The notes beneath the pieces are model-generated. The model was given only the letters and a program-made list of their open reading frames with translations, had not been told where the DNA came from and did not search any database. DNA of 27,410 nucleotides from IMG/VR virus record IMGVR_UViG_3300030095_005103, positions 1 to 27,410 of that record; one strand, given 5' to 3'. The stretch comes from a virus (Duplodnaviria > Caudoviricetes). Position numbers and translations under genes: made by a program. Shown here one piece after another: positions 8,743 through 27,410 of the stretch (within the stretch, counting starts at the first letter, position 1; every line of letters starts with the position of its first letter).

Positions 8743-9589
8743 GCATTGATTGTCCTTGAATGAAATTTGTGTGCGCCACGCAGAATCCAAAGTCCGTTTC
8801 GTAGGGCGATTCATAGATGGCATAAGTCACATTTTTGAATGCGTTTCGGGGTTTCTTCTTCAAACTCTGGACTACCTTTGAATGTAGCTTTCCATCGGTC
8901 TCAAGGCGCTTCTCTGCTATACATAAGTAGTATGCTACGTCGCGATCTTCCTCTAAATTATAGTACCATTGTTCAGAAAGTTTATCTACCGAAATGATAC
9001 CAACAGAGCGGATTCTTTGCACCTCTGAAGGCTTTGAAAGGTTACCAACAATTGGTTCTGTGTGATCAAAAACATTTAGATAATGAACAGCGTAGTAGAT
9101 ACTCTTGTTGATTACTTCAAAGTATTTTTTTATTGGGATCTCGCCTATTGTTTTCTCTATTGCTGGGTTTGATAAAATTGTAAAACTACTGAACAGCCCA
9201 GATCTTGCGTATTCTTGCAGGATCCCAAAGATTGCTCTCTCTTGTAGTTTAGCATCACCTATCAGCAGATCTACATCTGGCTTAATGTAGAAGATCTCAA
9301 TGGCTCTGTCCTTTATCTGTTGTAGTATCGCTAGTGTGTAATTTGCCGAGAAAGATGAGCCGCAAACAAACACCTGAACCCTTTCCTGAACTGCTTGTAT
9401 AGTCTTGTACGATGAAAGCTTGGGCGCGTTATCCTCACAATCCTCTGCTTTTGCCACTTTTGGCAGATTTCTTGTCCATTTGGTGTTCTCCTGACCTTCC
9501 GAGAACAAGAAACAATTATATTCCTTGTGGTCTTGGAATAAAGAAACCACATTACAGCCTGCTTCGCCTATGCCTATTAGCGAAATCAT
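8726..9589 (-). CDS. Tubulin/FtsZ-like protein with degenerate signature motif
   Basis: N-terminal LIGIGEAGCNV matches the FtsZ/TubZ/PhuZ T1 loop. VFVCGSSFSA sits where GGGTG(S/T)G is expected. ILSN and YFEVINKSI segments fit the fold; 287 aa. Confidence 0.7.
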   Translation of the reverse strand: MISLIGIGEAGCNVVSLFQDHKEYNCFLFSEGQENTKWTRNLPKVAKAEDCEDNAPKLSSYKTIQAVQERVQVFVCGSSFSANYTLAILQQIKDRAIEIFYIKPDVDLLIGDAKLQERAIFGILQEYARSGLFSSFTILSNPAIEKTIGEIPIKKYFEVINKSIYYAVHYLNVFDHTEPIVGNLSKPSEVQRIRSVGIISVDKLSEQWYYNLEEDRDVAYYLCIAEKRLETDGKLHSKVVQSLKKKPRNAFKNVTYAIYESPYETDFGFCVAHTNFIQGQSMLDSRD

Positions 9590-10776
9590 AACTTCAACTC
9601 CTTCAAATCTCCGTAGCTTTTGCCTGCCTTTACATTTACTCTAAACGATCCAAGTTTGTTGTTTTGGAACACCTCCTTTAATTCTGGTATTCTATGTCTA
9701 TCTTCTTCATGAATGTCAAGTACAACTTCATCGTGAACAATAAAAGCAACTTTTGATTTTGTGTTCTCAAGGATCTTGTCAATCTCGACTGCCCTAGCGA
9801 GTGTAAGATCTGCTGTTGTACTTTGAATAATATAACTGAAAGCTCTTCTCTCTTCTACTGAGATCGTCCGCCTGAATGGTGTTACCACGCGATTACCATA
9901 AAAATAATTACCAAGAACACGATCCCTGCTGTAAACAGAATTTTTGAGAGAATTGTCGTTGTGGTTATAAAAAGAAGAAAAGAATCTGACTTTCGCTTCT
10001 TCCCGATCAATGGGGTGATCGCCATAAAGGTGTTTCATATTCCATTCGTGAATATCTTCTTGTGGCTGCTCAACACCTGAGAGTGCTAAGAAGGTTCTTA
10101 CCTCTGCTCCGTTATAATCAAACGACACGAACCAGTCATTTGTTGGCTTGATTAGAGAACGAAATTTTGACTTCATTGTGAGAATAGGATTGCTTACTCT
10201 CTTGGTCGTGAGACGCCCTGTGACGGTTCCAAAAAGATTGTAGTCTACGTAATGCGACTTCTTTTTTACAAGCATCCTGATGTCTTCTCGGTCGCTCGTA
10301 GTGGTCATTAGGCGACGGCATCCATCCACGTTGATGTTCAATTTCTGGTATTTAATCTTGTGGAGAAGCTTATAAGTGCGATCAAGGTGAGCGTAGTTTT
10401 CAGGGCGAGAATAGTTCTCAAAAACGTGCTCTGTGATCTTGTTTCTGACCTCACAAAACTGAAGCAAGAAGTCACTTGGCACGAGATCAAAGAAGCAGTT
10501 ATCGTGCAGGTTGATCTTGCCTATTGAAAGTGATAGAAGGTACGCCTTGAAGGTTTTTTGAAGCTCAGTAAGCTCATCTCTTAGTTCTTCTGGGCAGACC
10601 TCTTCTAATTTTTTGCCTCCACAATAGAGCCAAGCAAACTCAACATCGGGATCTTGAATAGATCCTGTGTATTTCCAAGTTCTTGTTAACCCATCAGGGA
10701 TATGGTCGAAGTGCAGATTGCCATCAACGTAAACGCCGACACACTCTGACTTGTCGTCCAGTGTTTGGAAGATCAT
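9586..10776 (-). CDS. polA: Compact family A DNA polymerase (polymerase domain only)
   Basis: TVTGRL, motif A SFDYNGAEVR, motif B REEAKVRFFSSFY, IQSTTADL, motif C IVHDEVV; only 396 aa. Confidence 0.88.
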   Translation of the reverse strand: MIFQTLDDKSECVGVYVDGNLHFDHIPDGLTRTWKYTGSIQDPDVEFAWLYCGGKKLEEVCPEELRDELTELQKTFKAYLLSLSIGKINLHDNCFFDLVPSDFLLQFCEVRNKITEHVFENYSRPENYAHLDRTYKLLHKIKYQKLNINVDGCRRLMTTTSDREDIRMLVKKKSHYVDYNLFGTVTGRLTTKRVSNPILTMKSKFRSLIKPTNDWFVSFDYNGAEVRTFLALSGVEQPQEDIHEWNMKHLYGDHPIDREEAKVRFFSSFYNHNDNSLKNSVYSRDRVLGNYFYGNRVVTPFRRTISVEERRAFSYIIQSTTADLTLARAVEIDKILENTKSKVAFIVHDEVVLDIHEEDRHRIPELKEVFQNNKLGSFRVNVKAGKSYGDLKELKL

Positions 10777-11969
10777 ACATCCTCTCGTTTCTCTTGTTCT
10801 CTTATAAGATAACTCAGCGAGCCGCGATAGTCAAATGGTTGCGAGATAAATCTTTCAAAGGATCCTATCGCATAATTTACACCACTCGTCCTTGACAGAT
10901 TTATGAAGTCTGTTATATTATGATCCTGTTCTGCTTTTGAATGTTTGTTTTCTTCTTCTATAAATCTAAACATACAATATAATTTAATAAAATAATCTTC
11001 ATTATAAATATTATTAATATTATCTAATGTATATTCTGTTCTGTTTATAATTTTAGTTTTTCCACTACAACTATCATATTCAATATGTTTTGTTTTTACA
11101 ATTTGATTATACATTTGTAATAATTGATTTTTAAATAAATTATAATAAGAAATGTGAGTTTGTTTGAATCCTATAAGCAAAAGAGACTCTGTTGAAGAAA
11201 ATCCTTGGGGTTTCAATAAGTTCTCCACTACATCTTCATGTCCTATATCAAGAGTTATTCTCCAGGGAATTGATGCGTCCACCATAAAGCCAAAACTATT
11301 GCAAGCATTCAAGTAGTATTCAAAATTTCTACTATTCTTAAACAGATCAATTTTTTGCCGATCGTTTGTGTAGGTAAGGTCTGCGATCTCTATCGTCAAT
11401 CCGCTTACAAGCGGAGAGCAGTGGCGACTTCTAATGAATCCTGTCTTGGTTATTGGGTGGGAGGGTCCGAGTGCCGTTATATACCCAATCAGATGATTGA
11501 TGAAATCATCAAAACTCCTGATAATGATTTTGTCTTCATCCACCTTGCTTCTAATTGCTAAAACGATGTCACTTATATAAGAATTATATAGATTTTCTGG
11601 GCTTCTGTATCCATCATACGCTATGAGATTTGTTAAGTAATCATCATTTCTATCTATTTTGCCTATTTGTGCTGCTTTTTTGAATTGTCTTGAGAGTTCT
11701 TGAAAACCTTCTGCTACAAAATTTAAAACTCTAATTGAGTTTCTATTGGACGCATTATTAATATTTGAAAATGAGGCCATTATTTCATTTGGCTGTATAG
11801 TTACATAATTTCTGTTTACTCTACCGTACAGGTATTTTTCTCCAAAATTAAAATCAACTACATTTGAGTAAGTCTGAGAATACTGGATCATTTCGCCTCG
11901 GTAAATTACTGACTTGTCGAATAAATCTCGCGTCCCCTCTTCATTGGATTCTTTGTAAAAAATAGACAT
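10773..11969 (-). CDS. Hypothetical protein (398 aa), last gene of the tail/baseplate block
   Basis: Long ORF; likely start ATG 11969 (TGATG overlap with the upstream stop). No motif recognised. Confidence 0.75.
   Translation of the reverse strand: MSIFYKESNEEGTRDLFDKSVIYRGEMIQYSQTYSNVVDFNFGEKYLYGRVNRNYVTIQPNEIMASFSNINNASNRNSIRVLNFVAEGFQELSRQFKKAAQIGKIDRNDDYLTNLIAYDGYRSPENLYNSYISDIVLAIRSKVDEDKIIIRSFDDFINHLIGYITALGPSHPITKTGFIRSRHCSPLVSGLTIEIADLTYTNDRQKIDLFKNSRNFEYYLNACNSFGFMVDASIPWRITLDIGHEDVVENLLKPQGFSSTESLLLIGFKQTHISYYNLFKNQLLQMYNQIVKTKHIEYDSCSGKTKIINRTEYTLDNINNIYNEDYFIKLYCMFRFIEEENKHSKAEQDHNITDFINLSRTSGVNYAIGSFERFISQPFDYRGSLSYLIREQEKREDV
10806..10834 (-). promoter_or_regulatory. Sigma70-like promoter opening the replication block
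   Basis: TTGACT-17 nt-TATCTT embedded in the upstream CDS, followed by SD GAGAGG and the polA ATG. Confidence 0.65.
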
Positions 11970-14900
11970 CAAATATCCCACCTAGCGCTTTGGTTAATAG
12001 TTTTTCTAGCAACACATTTTTGAACTTCGGAACCTTCTTTTTTTCTTTTTTTTGGACTTGACTTATCGGTGCTGTTACCCTCTTTGCTAGCAACCCAAGC
12101 AGCGTTTAGCGTAGTTGAGGCTTCGCCAGGACCGATCTTGTGTGTTGTTTTTGTGATCATGCAGTAGCCACCAATGCCAAAGCGTGTTAAGTCTTCTGTA
12201 GTGTTTGGAGAAAAGCCTTTTGGATCAACATAAATGTAGGTTCCTGGGAATGTCTGGACATTCAAAAACGAATCCACAGTAACATTATAAACTTCTCTTA
12301 ACTGGGTTAAGCCATCAAATCCTTCCTGTTCAAATCTTACCTCTTTTAATCCTGGGGTGCTGGTCTTTTCAAGACTTATATTTTTAATAATTCCCTCGTC
12401 TCGTCCCAAAACATAATGAAAAATACCAGCATCTGAATCTTGTTCTACATTGCCAACAAAAGAATCTGACGGAGAGTTTCTGCCAATTGAGAAAACATAA
12501 TAATTTATCATTCTTTCTATGGACAATTCAGATATGGGAGCGCCGCGCTTGCCATTTAACAGCAGTATTGGTTCACCCTCTTTTCTGGCTCTCTTATTAA
12601 AGACCGCTTGGTAAGTAATGTCATCTATCGGTGCCCTTCCTGACTTCCATTCGCCGACTTTGTTGATTTTTCTATTATAGGCAACAACACTCGTGCTATT
12701 TACATGTAGTTTCTGGGCGTTGTTAACACGACCACAACTTTCAGAGTTTAAAAAGTTAGTAACCAAATCATTACACAAATCTTTAATAAACTTTGAAATA
12801 GGGTAGTTTATTATTTCCTTAGAAATAACTTTTTTAGACAAAAATTCAAAGAAATAATTTAGTGAAACAGGGATATCACCTAGGGTTGTAAAAGTAGAAG
12901 AAAAGTTTCGTGCTGGTGAGTAAATTTCTGCTGGTCCAAGTACAACTCGCATCTGTTGAAATTGTTGTAAAGAGTTTTTTATTGATTTTTGTGCTTCGTT
13001 AATAAATTGTTTAAAATCTTTGTTTGATGCATTTGTAAATTTTCCTGTATTTACCACTTCTTTGTAATATTCTGAGTCTTTTAAGTTTGTTGCTATGTTA
13101 AGTTCTCTCTCTATCAATTCCATGGCAACTGCCACTATGTCTTGAATATAAAAGTATGGAGTTGAGTTGTTGTCTTGAGACACAGCAACAGCGCTCAGTA
13201 GTTGTTGCGCTGTGGTTCCATCTGGCTCTTTATTTTGAGCAAGAATTTTTTTAATTTCACTTACCTGTGTGGCACTGAGTCCCGCATTTGAATATGGCTT
13301 GGGGAATTGTACGCTGCTGTCTGTAGGATCATTTAATAACTTTATAACGTCCTTGTATGATAGATTTAAATAATAGATTTTATCTTTGGCAGCCAACTCT
13401 GAGACTAAATCGGAATACGCTCTTAAATTCAATTTTTGAACAAACTTTTCATCAAACTTAAGCAACTCTGTTAATTCCTCACTTTTATCTCCGCAAGATT
13501 GTTTTTTTACAAAATTAAAAATTGCTTCTCTGACTATTTTTTCTTTGGTAAGAGAGGCGAAGATGTTAAACTGAGACTGGGCAAAAGCATCTTCAATGTA
13601 TGCAAGGTATTCAATATCAAAATTGACGGCGCCTGTTTCATCAAAATCAAATGTGTGAATTGTGGGTGTAAGATAGATGGTTATATAAGAATTATAGATT
13701 GCCTTTTTTTGTCCTGGCTTTAAGCCAACAAAGGTATCTCTTGGGACATTCCAGCCAACAACTGCCTTAAGTCTAAAATTTAGTTTTTCAGCGTTCTCTT
13801 TCTGAATTTGCGTTAGATCTGGTAGTCTGCTCTTTGCCACAGGTCCAGTTTTTAAAGCGAGATCGGCATATCTAAATCCGTTTCGTTCTTTTAATATATC
13901 ATCAAAGGTGGAGGCGAACATGCTCAATTTTGCCGTTATTGCTTTTTTGGCTGAAAACGGATCGGTTCCTTCGTAAGAAAACGTAAAGTCTTTTAGTCCG
14001 ACGCCGTAGCCTCTTTGTCTCTGCAATGCGCCGCTAGCAATACCCAAGTCGTTTGTTATGTTTGTGTCAAAAGTTATCGCTGTTTCCACATCTTTTCCAT
14101 TTTCATCTCTCACTACCTTATATAAACGAATGTAGGGCATAAGTTGGGAGACTAATTCTGGTCTTAGTTTGAACAATTCCCTTTGGCTTGGATCTGTTAC
14201 GAGGCTATTGGTGAAAGCAAAAGGGTTTCCGCCTATTTTTATTGGATGATTGGTGGCTCTATTGACATAAGGATAAGATTTGTTTTTTTGTGATTCCTCC
14301 AATAGTTCTTTTATAAAAGTTAAAAGAAGACACTGCTCGGAGTATGCCAAGTTGTCTCCTGCGAAAGACTCAATTGTATCTACAAGACCTTCTTGCAGGG
14401 CGCGGAGTTTTTTGAGTCTTTCGCGCGCCTTTAGGGCATCATCCATGCTGCTGGCACTAGCCCCACCGGAGGACAACTGGACATCACCAGCCATGTCCAC
14501 TTCCGGAGAGATACTTTCTCTCTCTGCCCGCTCAATTTCTCTCTCAAGAGCATCATTAAATAATTTGACAACACCCCGCTTAACATGCTCATAAATGTCA
14601 TCTGGGCAGATCCTTATAGCAGAACTTGCGGCTGTAATTATGGCATTTGTGACTGTCATTGCTGAAGCCCTGAAGCCAGAAATCCTGACGCCTTCTTCAG
14701 AGTATGAACTCATTGAAAAATCATATGATTCAAACAGGGCATCGACTTGTGTACCAAATTCTGATTGATTGAGTTTTTTATAGTCTGTGTTTAGTAACGT
14801 AACAAGATCTACGATGGGTTGTGTTGGATCTCCAATGTCAGAACTAAAAATACTACCTTTGACTTCTACCATATGCTTTTGTAGTTTTGTCCTATCGGCG

Positions 14901-26298: not shown

Positions 26299-26445
26299 TT
26301 ACTCAGACTTAGCAGCCTTTTTTCTAGTGGTCTTCGCACGAGGCTTGGCGGACGCCTTCTTCTTTGCGGGAGCCTTGGCAGGTGCTTTGGGGGCACTTGC
26401 CGATCGGTTCTGCCTTCTATCTAAACTTACTTTTAAAAAATTCAT
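26299..26445 (-). CDS. Small Lys/Ala/Pro-rich, histone H1-like basic protein (48 aa)
   Basis: Below the ORF-track cutoff. MNFLKVSLDRRQNRSASAPKAPAKAPAKKKASAKPRAKTTRKKAAKSE*; AGGA upstream; fills the gap between the upstream gene and the terminator. Confidence 0.75.
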   Translation of the reverse strand: MNFLKVSLDRRQNRSASAPKAPAKAPAKKKASAKPRAKTTRKKAAKSE

Positions 26446-26463
26446 TTTAATTTATCCTATATA

Positions 26464-27039
26464 TCAAACAGTTGAGTACGCGATTGCGGCGTTTCCAGTG
26501 CCAAGAGGCTCGGCAGTAATTTCAAAGTACCACTCACCGGCAGCCACACAAGTAAATATGGCTCTGGAACCGATACCCCAAGCTGAGTTAGTACCAGCGC
26601 CAGTAATAACAATACGATTATTGGCATCTGCTGGGCGGTCGGGTGCTAGAACTCTACTTGAGCTATAGCCCAACGCGAATGAGTTAGTGCAAAAAGTGTT
26701 GCCGGTGTTGGCGTTGATGGTAAGCACACCGCTGGCAACCAAGTCAGCACCCTGAATAATTTCAATCTGCACGCCAACGTCTGCTGCTAGCATATTTGTT
26801 GGTAAGTTTAGGGTCTTTGCTGCGCCATCAAGCAAACAAACAAATCTCTTTCCGTGGTCCGCTCTGACAAAGTTAACTGTGGCGGTGTCGTCCGCTAGGT
26901 TAGCACCGGCGGTTGTGTGCTGAGTTGCAAGCCTGCTCTGAGCCAAACCAGTAAGACTGGCACCATCCATAGCCAGTTCTCTCTTTAGATTTTCAAACAA
27001 GGTCTCAATTCTGCCGAGACCAATTCTTCTACTTCCCAT
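26464..27039 (-). CDS. Probable virion structural protein (capsid decoration/fibre-like)
   Basis: 191 aa, Gly/Ala/Thr-rich and beta-strand-like; strong SD AAGGAG; directly after the major capsid gene. Function inferred from position only. Confidence 0.6.
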   Translation of the reverse strand: MGSRRIGLGRIETLFENLKRELAMDGASLTGLAQSRLATQHTTAGANLADDTATVNFVRADHGKRFVCLLDGAAKTLNLPTNMLAADVGVQIEIIQGADLVASGVLTINANTGNTFCTNSFALGYSSSRVLAPDRPADANNRIVITGAGTNSAWGIGSRAIFTCVAAGEWYFEITAEPLGTGNAAIAYSTV

Positions 27040-27071
27040 AATATTTTCTCCTTTATGATTATATTATTGCA

Positions 27072-27169
27072 ATAACTTGTCCTATCCAATGAATTATTAC
27101 CAGCCACCTCGGTAATAAAACTTTCTAAGGGCAGTGGCCTCGCCCAGAGGAGAATATTTCAAGTTGTTG
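27072..27169 (-). ncRNA. Candidate structured RNA: three-way junction with two complementary loops
   Basis: AACTTG..TCC(T)/(A)GGACAAGTT closing stem; hairpins GGGC-gaggccact-GCCC and TTATTACC-gaggtggct-GGTAATAA; starts just after a late promoter motif. Confidence 0.6.
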
Positions 27170-27177
27170 TAAATAGT
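27170..27177 (-). promoter_or_regulatory. Putative late promoter (ACTATTTA)
   Basis: Immediately after the capsid gene terminator. Confidence 0.7.
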
Positions 27178-27183
27178 ATCTCT

Positions 27184-27215
27184 AAAAGCAAAAACCCCCT
27201 ACCGAAGTAGGGGGC
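27184..27215 (-). terminator. Rho-independent terminator with cUUCGg tetraloop after the major capsid gene
   Basis: CCCCCTAC-ttcg-GTAGGGGG followed by TTTTTGCTTTT. Confidence 0.92.
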
Positions 27216-27241
27216 GTAGGTTGAGTAAGTTGTCTTACTTA

Positions 27242-27410
27242 TCAGGAAGTAGCGCCAGACTCGCCAAGGAGACCACGAACGATGACTAGACCGTACATAT
27301 CTGGGCGAACCATCTTCTTCGCGTAGCGGGTCATAACACCCTTGCGCGGCACGAAGTCTTCAGGTCCGAAGATTGTGGGAGTAGTCTGTAGTGGCACGTA
27401 AGGTGCGTAG
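27242..27410 (-). CDS. Major capsid protein (T4 gp23-like), C-terminal fragment
   Basis: Manual translation YAPYVPLQTTPTIFGPEDFVPRKGVMTRYAKKMVRPDMYGLVIVRGLLGESGATS* (TGA TAA) matches the gp23-family C-terminal YxPYVPL...F.P..G..TRY pattern. Confidence 0.9.
   Translation of the reverse strand, partial: YAPYVPLQTTPTIFGPEDFVPRKGVMTRYAKKMVRPDMYGLVIVRGLLGESGATS

Follow-up and report, generated by a model that had tools for sequence, protein, structure and literature searches.

The window, by which we mean the whole stretch of DNA that was analysed, is an entire IMG/VR virus record of 27,410 bases with an estimated completeness of 15%, and its genes lie on the minus strand throughout. Read along that strand, it begins with the 3' end of the major capsid gene, which is followed by an intrinsic terminator, a ACTATTTA box, the structured element studied here, the ribosome-binding site AAGGAGAA and an open reading frame (ORF) of 191 aa (Table 1). 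The genes after this ORF encode head-tail adaptor-like, sheath, tube, baseplate hub and tape measure proteins, and further on lie the replication genes, namely gp32, a RecA/UvsX-like protein, a DnaB-like helicase and a class II ribonucleotide reductase. By its sheath and tube genes, the phage that the window comes from is a contractile-tailed myovirus. Its sheath is at best 28-39% identical to those of cultured phages (e.g. Microcystis phage Mel-JY01 and Flavobacterium phage immuto), which points to an uncultured lineage of large myoviruses. The gene psbA (PF00124) was absent from all four near-complete relatives, and these relatives are probably not typical cyanomyoviruses. No tRNA or tmRNA was found in the window. 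Elsewhere on the minus strand, a 402-aa and a 396-aa ORF lie next to each other and overlap (9586-11981); as only the second matches family A DNA polymerase, over the C-terminal part of that family, they may constitute a split polymerase gene.

The ACTATTTA box has four exact copies in the window, at distances of 18, 54, 23 and 131 nt to the ORF starts, and the looser pattern ACTAWTTA has five matches, all on the coding strand, compared with 2.2 expected (5 of 100 shuffles reach five). From the position of the exact copies ahead of ORFs and the strand bias of the looser matches, the box behaves like a late promoter element, and it is almost unchanged across 107 leaders. The distance of 131 nt is that of the element studied here, and it bears out the remark of an earlier note on this DNA that this leader is far longer than the other late leaders. 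The terminator that the same note had placed on the 5' side of the element is present as well, and a comparable G+C hairpin with a T run stands ahead of the box in most homologues.

Table 1. Features of the leader and of its flanking genes, in the order of transcription (window coordinates).
Feature	Position	Strand	Evidence or remark
Major capsid gene, 3' end (truncated by contig end)	27242..27410	-	phrog_138 major head protein, E = 1.1e-5
Intrinsic terminator of major capsid gene	27194..27215	-	9-bp G+C stem, then T run
ACTATTTA box, presumed late promoter -10 element	27170..27177	-	recurring copies, near-invariance
P1 5' strand AACUUG	27160..27165	-	partner 27079-27074; covaries
P1b 5' strand UAUUC	27152..27156	-	partner 27087-27083
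Anti-SD UUCUCCU, invariant	27148..27154	-	complementary to ribosome-binding site; also kept in type C
P2 hairpin GGGC/L2 GAGGCCACU/GCCC	27129..27145	-	stem 27145-27142 with 27132-27129; L2 27141-27133
P3 hairpin, 11 levels (two U.U in window), L3 GAGGUGGCU	27091..27121	-	27121-27111 with 27101-27091; L3 27110-27102
P1b 3' strand GGAUA	27083..27087	-	partner P1b 5' strand
P1 3' strand CAAGUU	27074..27079	-	partner P1 5' strand; covaries
P4 palindromic hairpin GUUAUUGCAAUAAU	27063..27076	-	closing pair G-C 59, G.U 47 of 106
Ribosome-binding site AAGGAGAA	27046..27053	-	GGAG-AUG spacing 6-10 nt in 106/106 leaders
191-aa ORF behind leader	26464..27039	-	N-terminal basic helix and beta-rich body

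Positions 27165-27074 of the minus strand fold into a three-way junction in which the two hairpin loops are complementary over 7 positions (27139-27133 of L2 with 27108-27102 of L3). The minus-strand sequence had been transcribed exactly in the earlier note, and the three-way junction drawn there coincides with the RNAfold minimum-energy fold (-28.3 kcal/mol). Since this sequence has a z-score of -1.90 and 7 of 200 shuffles fold equally well, the lone sequence is weak evidence for this fold.

Relatives of the element were collected from IMG/VR with two patterns. An exact search with the 17-base P2 hairpin returned 95 loci, 92 of which have the whole architecture, the other 3 being G+C-rich chance matches. 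The second pattern used segments outside P2, L2, P3 and L3 alone, to avoid anchoring on the loops, and returned at least 119 loci (about 130 estimated), 76 with the window's hairpin and 43 with a different one. Together, the two sets gave 106 distinct leaders of the window's kind (types A and B), from which a covariance model, R1, was built. R1 finds one strong match per record in all five large relatives, one of which has terminal repeats; four of the five are 98-100% complete, so that the element is present in one copy per genome in four genomes of 185-195 kb. Among the best 80 of about 3,400 capsid-protein stretches (63-92% identity), 73 extend 200 nt or more past the capsid gene, and the RNA is present in 13 of these 73. 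Two divergent RNAs among the 13 led to a third subfamily, type C, for which 73 pattern matches contained 34 true loci and 30 distinct sequences. Overall, the element occurs in about 170 uncultured marine phage contigs, with about 135 distinct leaders. In cellular genomes, the anchored pattern gave no match beyond a single Noviherbaspirillum locus (L227), which lacks the hairpins and loops and was set aside as chance.

We used these leaders to assess the fold by comparison. In a MAFFT alignment of the 106 distinct leaders (A2), scored against a 37-pair model that includes the loop-loop helix, 92.5% of the cells are paired, compared with 85.4% in shuffles, and none of 500 shuffles reaches the observed value. 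When the partners are slid by 1-3 columns, the paired cells drop to 34-47%. Pairing above the shuffled level in 106 leaders indicates that the fold is more than chance. Covariation among relatives, which the earlier note had named as the check on its proposal, is borne out by compensatory changes in stems P1, P1b, P2 and P3 and in the loop pair. One column pair of P1 (14-120) is A-U, G-C or G-U in 53, 24 and 21 leaders, respectively, the P2 stem varies between G-C, A-U and G-U, and P3 has both-side changes at 10 of its 11 pairs across the 106 leaders. P1b of the window's kind shows wobble changes only, with U.U in 21 of 97 leaders. Its type C counterpart is a G+C-rich helix of 7-8 bp with many compensations, and with type C added, in an alignment fitted to the model, both-side changes occur at all 5 pairs. 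The frequency of G.U pairs in the stems indicates that it is the transcribed (coding) strand that is under selection.

The loop-loop helix is 100% paired in A2. Two of its positions change from C:G to G:C and from A:U to G:C, in 17 sequences each, and another is divided between U:G and U:A (68/38). The window's loop type combines GGCCACU with G/AGUGGCU, type B combines GGCGGCU with G/AGCCGCU, and type C combines GGCCCCU with GGGGCU. A second alignment, of 98 distinct leaders with all three loop types, was fitted to a nested model without the loop-loop helix. Here, the loop-loop columns 50-83 hold A:U in 53 leaders, C:G in 28 and G:C in 17, with 0 unpaired, and two loop-loop pairs (A:U/G:C/C:G and C:G/G:C) switch with zero unpaired cells. 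Both-side changes are found at 24 of 37 pairs in these 98 leaders, compared with 17.2 in shuffles (0 of 500). In type C, many leaders lack the outermost loop pair (23 unpaired cells), and the loop-loop helix therefore consists of 6-7 pairs. Type B loops occur on two different backbones (that of L106 and that of the others). There are three loop “alleles” in about 135 distinct leaders. The covariation counts are counts of sequences rather than of events, and the three loop types may go back to as few as three or four events. In summary, the comparison of leaders identifies the element as a real, strongly conserved folded RNA with co-evolved loops.

Some parts of the fold differ from the earlier drawing or vary between types. 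Of the closing helix described in the earlier note, P1 (AACUUG/CAAGUU) stands; the UCC/GGA extension is possible in 22 of 106 leaders and was rejected, and the UAUUC/GAAUA helix (P1b) is conserved in its place. P2 could conceivably be extended by pairing UCUCCU with AGAAAG, at the cost of two C.A mismatches; the two strands are nearly unvarying within types A and B, and AGAAAG is missing in type C. P4 shares 3 nt with the 3' strand of P1, so that full P4 and full P1 are mutually exclusive. It contains GUUAUCGAUAAC in 2 leaders and is absent from type C.

Neither the window nor nine divergent loci match a family in Rfam 15, which agrees with the earlier suspicion of an undescribed RNA. A search of window positions 26900-27410 at E up to 10 gave three weak matches, which score 14.7-18.8 bits where the gathering thresholds are 49.5-85 and which all fall on the terminator region, and the nine divergent loci at E up to 1 gave seven weak matches, all below the gathering score. 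A query of 1011 bases had no match in cultured phages (blastn ‘distant’). Searching the literature by words and by 13-letter sequence words returned no relevant paper. The 2023 catalogue of Fremin et al. (PMC10690425) comprises 8,495 candidate RNAs from IMG/VR and may hold the motif; the sample numbers of four relatives do not occur in file 4 of that article, in which the tables come without sequences. The RNA is thus apparently uncatalogued. At about 100 nt, and present in more than 100 uncultured marine myovirus contigs, it is among the better-supported uncatalogued structured RNAs of phage genomes. To RNA structural biology it offers a natural three-way junction that is compact and has an unusually well-supported kissing contact of 7 bp in three compensatory “alleles”, of a size that suits direct probing, native gels and reporter assays.

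The earlier note had left two roles side by side, a cis-regulatory leader and a processed capsid RNA. The first fits the locus, in which the ribosome-binding site and AUG follow directly behind the element, and RNA-library contigs (X2, X5) span the leader into the downstream ORF. The second, a processed, capsid-associated RNA resembling pRNA, found no support: the element is not a stand-alone gene, the phage is a myovirus, and Rfam gives no pRNA match. No contig from seven RNA or RNA(?) runs crosses positions 27166-27199, the interval of terminator and box, contigs of run X15, whose run kind is not on record, do cross them, and one RNA(?)-library contig ends at 27165, a weak indication. The RNA-library data are assembled contigs in which 5' ends and levels are not readable and DNA may be present, and the contig ends at 27153, 27121 and 27092, like the uncovered parts, are uninformative. 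The role of the element as a cis-acting 5' leader, serving the gene that follows the major capsid gene, is well founded.

The gene behind the leader is hard to place by homology. Its 191-aa product has no match in PHROG or Pfam, and a PDB profile search returned 0 matches. AlphaFold2 models it with a pLDDT of 82 as a helix (residues 8-22) followed by strands. The viral clusters that match it are unnamed, and the nearest named Atlas clusters are beta-sandwich C-terminal domains of tail-fibre/depolymerase proteins (0.88), a likeness that we take as a lead only. Downstream products in the relatives are 160-310 aa long and have a basic N-terminal segment, MGxRRxGxKRL..., as their sole common part; none of 25 diverse products belongs to a Pfam or PHROG family, and none of 73 other complete products aligns to the window's protein past the 48 N-terminal residues. 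The window's type of protein, in turn, is found behind other leaders, in L002 (86% identity) and L003 (62%). Both loci have the same slot after capsid gene, terminator and box and keep the N-terminal motif, and R1 has no match in either leader. Many further capsid relatives either have no such gene or carry an MGxKRVG gene after long leaders of other kinds. The same leader before unrelated bodies, and the same protein behind other leaders, imply that leader and body are separate modules. By this comparison, the slot is hypervariable, with protein bodies that can be exchanged and four or more distinct long leaders among related phages, and we infer that its product is a virion-surface accessory protein. 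The RNA thereby gives phage biology a handle on the control of a hypervariable virion-accessory gene slot.

Several further features of this region were observed. The first 25-48 codons, which encode the basic helix, are common to downstream proteins that are otherwise unrelated (the window compared with L005-L099), which suggests recombination break points just inside the ORF and an N-terminus that serves them all as an anchor module. The slot defined by capsid gene, terminator, ACTAnTTA box and MGxKRVG gene is also occupied by three or more further long leaders (65-150 nt) whose sequences are unrelated to the element (L002:2390-2500, L003:2420-2500 and many of L228-L307, e.g. L241, L243, L258, L263 and L251). 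Hairpins of their own and G-rich ribosome sites (GGAGGG) are seen in some of these leaders, and the slot seems to need a long leader of whatever kind. In 12 of 80 capsid loci, a second conserved intergenic motif (...CCGGTAAnTTTTTGAGATTTTCGTTTTT...; e.g. L230:1895-1960 and L231:1890-1955, and 10 more of L228-L307) stands between the terminator of the capsid gene and the late box; it is absent from the window and could represent a further promoter type or a small repeat. On the minus strand of the window, an 8-bp hairpin with a terminator-like score, GGUCUCGGCAGAAUUGAGACC, lies 19-39 nt into the ORF (27001-27021), and right after the 191-aa gene an ORF of 48 aa (26299-26445), very rich in Lys, Ala and Pro (...APKAPAKAPAKKKASAKPRAKTTRKKAAKSE), resembles a histone-tail or DNA-binding peptide and has no family match.

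Our preferred reading, held tentatively and at somewhat less than even confidence, is that this 5' leader of a late mRNA controls translation in cis by holding or releasing the anti-SD. Transcription would start about 5 nt past the box, so that the message would begin with P1. While the junction is folded (ON), UCUCCU would be occupied by P1b, the junction and the P2 base, leaving the ribosome site accessible. Once P1 and P1b opened, UUCUCCU could pair with AGGAGAA and close a cloverleaf of P2, P3 and P4, in which translation would be blocked (OFF). The P2 and P3 hairpins fit both folds, and so, therefore, does the kissing helix. This helix would lock P2 and P3 into a rigid unit, raising the barrier between the folds and shielding the 5' end. 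Candidate triggers of the change are folding kinetics, temperature, a protein, or the pairing of two messages.

The core of the anti-SD:SD helix, CUCC:GGAG, can form in 106 of 106 leaders, and at least 7 contiguous base pairs in 104. In the nested-fold ensemble of these leaders, the ribosome site is paired with a mean probability of 0.68 (0.6 or above in 72 of 106). The energy of the P1 fold minus that of the masked fold is -0.10 +/- 1.75 kcal/mol, with 77 of 106 leaders within 2 kcal/mol; these energies leave out the loop-loop helix and all tertiary contacts, and the sequences are related, so that the near-zero difference is not independent evidence. The anti-SD:SD helix shows no covariation: its core is invariant, and its variable position is U-A in 95 leaders, U.G in 7 and C.A in 4, with no C-G. 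For the 27 distinct complete leaders of type C, the junction fold is predicted to be more stable than the masked one by 7.8 +/- 3.9 kcal/mol, and the probability that the ribosome site is paired is only 0.21, so equilibrium masking is not universal. As a different leader class in this gene slot is also followed by AAGGAGAA as its ribosome site, the complementarity to the CU-rich stretch may be partly incidental. It is the invariant anti-SD:SD helix, the type C energies and the lack of P4 in type C that keep our confidence in this mechanism where it is.

The leader might instead serve as a protein-binding site, either for a phage translational repressor or for the downstream product through its basic N-terminus (MGxRRxGxKRL); the bound protein would stabilise one fold and match synthesis to need, as in the leaders of T4 gp32 and of ribosomal proteins. 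Such a role would account for loops that are almost frozen, at three types in about 135 leaders, beyond what pairing demands, and for a basic N-terminal segment, modelled by AlphaFold2 as helix 8-22, that is common to all products while their bodies differ. However, L002 and L003 have the same N-terminal motif without the RNA, so the motif is independent of the leader. The product matches no RNA-binding family, and no candidate repressor was found. We consider this reading rather unlikely. CsrA-type GGA sites were dropped by eye, as the loops carry GAGG and there is no consistent GGA motif.

A compact junction at the 5' terminus, locked by the kissing loops, that does not switch at all, and that constitutively guards the late message from 5'-end-dependent decay and keeps the CU-rich stretch off the ribosome-binding site, is in our view unlikely. 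In every type, P1 does lie about 5 nt downstream of the box, the strongly favoured junction fold of type C fits an always-folded element, and there is one copy per genome, ahead of a gene that has a promoter and terminator context to itself. Yet this leaves the invariant exact complement of the ribosome-binding site and the balanced folds of the window's kind unexplained, and close relatives use quite different leaders for the same slot.

It is distinctly unlikely, in our estimate, that the loops pair between molecules in the manner of phi29 pRNA or retroviral dimer sites, with L2 of one message contacting L3 of another to give dimers or rings when the message is abundant; such pairing might serve to count messages, to co-localise them or to fulfil a virion-associated role. 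Seven complementary bases in 9-nt loops with two unpaired 5' purines resemble known intermolecular kissing sites, the P2 and P3 levels (about 8/11 in the window, 8/10 in type B and 8/6 in type C) are awkward for parallel helices within one molecule, and the three loop types would act as mutually incompatible ‘locks’. Against this, the covariation fits pairing within or between molecules alike, the RNA is an mRNA leader rather than a free RNA and has no tie to packaging, and the lysine riboswitch provides a precedent for intramolecular kissing over about 6 bp. One speculative and improbable variant is a self-counting mRNA, in which, late in infection, L2-L3 pairing between accumulating copies would open or fix the junction and switch translation of the capsid-accessory gene by message concentration; if this were true, three incompatible lock types would prevent cross-talk between co-infecting phage lineages. 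A metabolite-sensing riboswitch, with its pocket in the three-way junction and the anti-SD as expression platform, is very improbable: the junction with loop-loop contact, the leader position of purine-type riboswitches and the two competing predicted folds would suit it, but the junction strands are AGAAAG/AUCAUU in types A and B and CUGUC/AAC(U/C) in type C, a difference that speaks against a conserved ligand pocket, no Rfam family matches, and a late virion-accessory gene with a varying body offers no metabolic logic.

Several known RNAs share parts of this architecture. The purine riboswitch (RF00167) is a leader with a three-way junction, a closing P1 and two touching hairpin loops, and some members mask the ribosome-binding site. 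The element shares the P1-P2-P3 junction and the loop-loop contact, and to this extent the comparison made in the earlier note stands; a conserved junction pocket is not shared, as the strands differ between types A/B and C. Purine riboswitch loops form two standard pairs plus non-canonical contacts, whereas the element forms 6-7 standard pairs, its helices are unequal, its junction strands vary by subfamily, and there is neither a covariance-model match nor an indicated ligand. In small podoviruses, the phi29 pRNA (RF00044) acts as a free RNA, with binding to the portal and 4-nt pairing between molecules. It is likewise phage-encoded, with a three-way junction and a loop complementarity kept by covariation across phages, but the element is an mRNA leader with a ribosome-binding site and ORF, found in myoviruses of about 190 kb with sheath, tube and baseplate, and it does not match the pRNA model. 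Loop-loop helices of 6-7 standard pairs occur in the lysine riboswitch (L2-L3), the HIV-1 DIS and ColE1 RNA I-II, and the element's 9-nt loops with unpaired flanking purines resemble those of the HIV-1 DIS; with no relation in sequence or family, these are geometric precedents only. The ROOL and GOLLD RNAs are natural bacterial RNAs, often found in phages, that are described as forming ornate RNA-only complexes (bioRxiv 10.1101/2024.12.08.627333); they are large non-coding RNAs, whereas the element is a 100-nt mRNA leader.

For the control of translation by a held or released anti-SD, which we favour, the comparison is with the maturation-gene leader of MS2. As described for that phage, an upstream complement masks the ribosome-binding site at equilibrium, and a metastable structure allows a burst of translation (PMC4615214). 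MS2 is an RNA phage, and its leader has no sequence in common with the element and no loop-loop helix. The long-distance helix of MS2 covaries (PMC4615214), whereas its counterpart in the element is invariant. In silico, the competing fold that sequesters the anti-SD is balanced in types A and B, and in type C the open fold is favoured by 7.8 kcal/mol; the masked fold is thus predicted to be disfavoured in type C, unlike in MS2. The A-protein leader of MS2 and other Levivirus phages lies 5'-terminally before a virion-protein gene, has an upstream complement that can pair with the SD at long distance and close a cloverleaf of hairpin arms, and has an alternative local structure that holds the complement and lets ribosomes in (PMC4615214). 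The element shares the upstream complement, and the remaining features match what we propose or predict for it.
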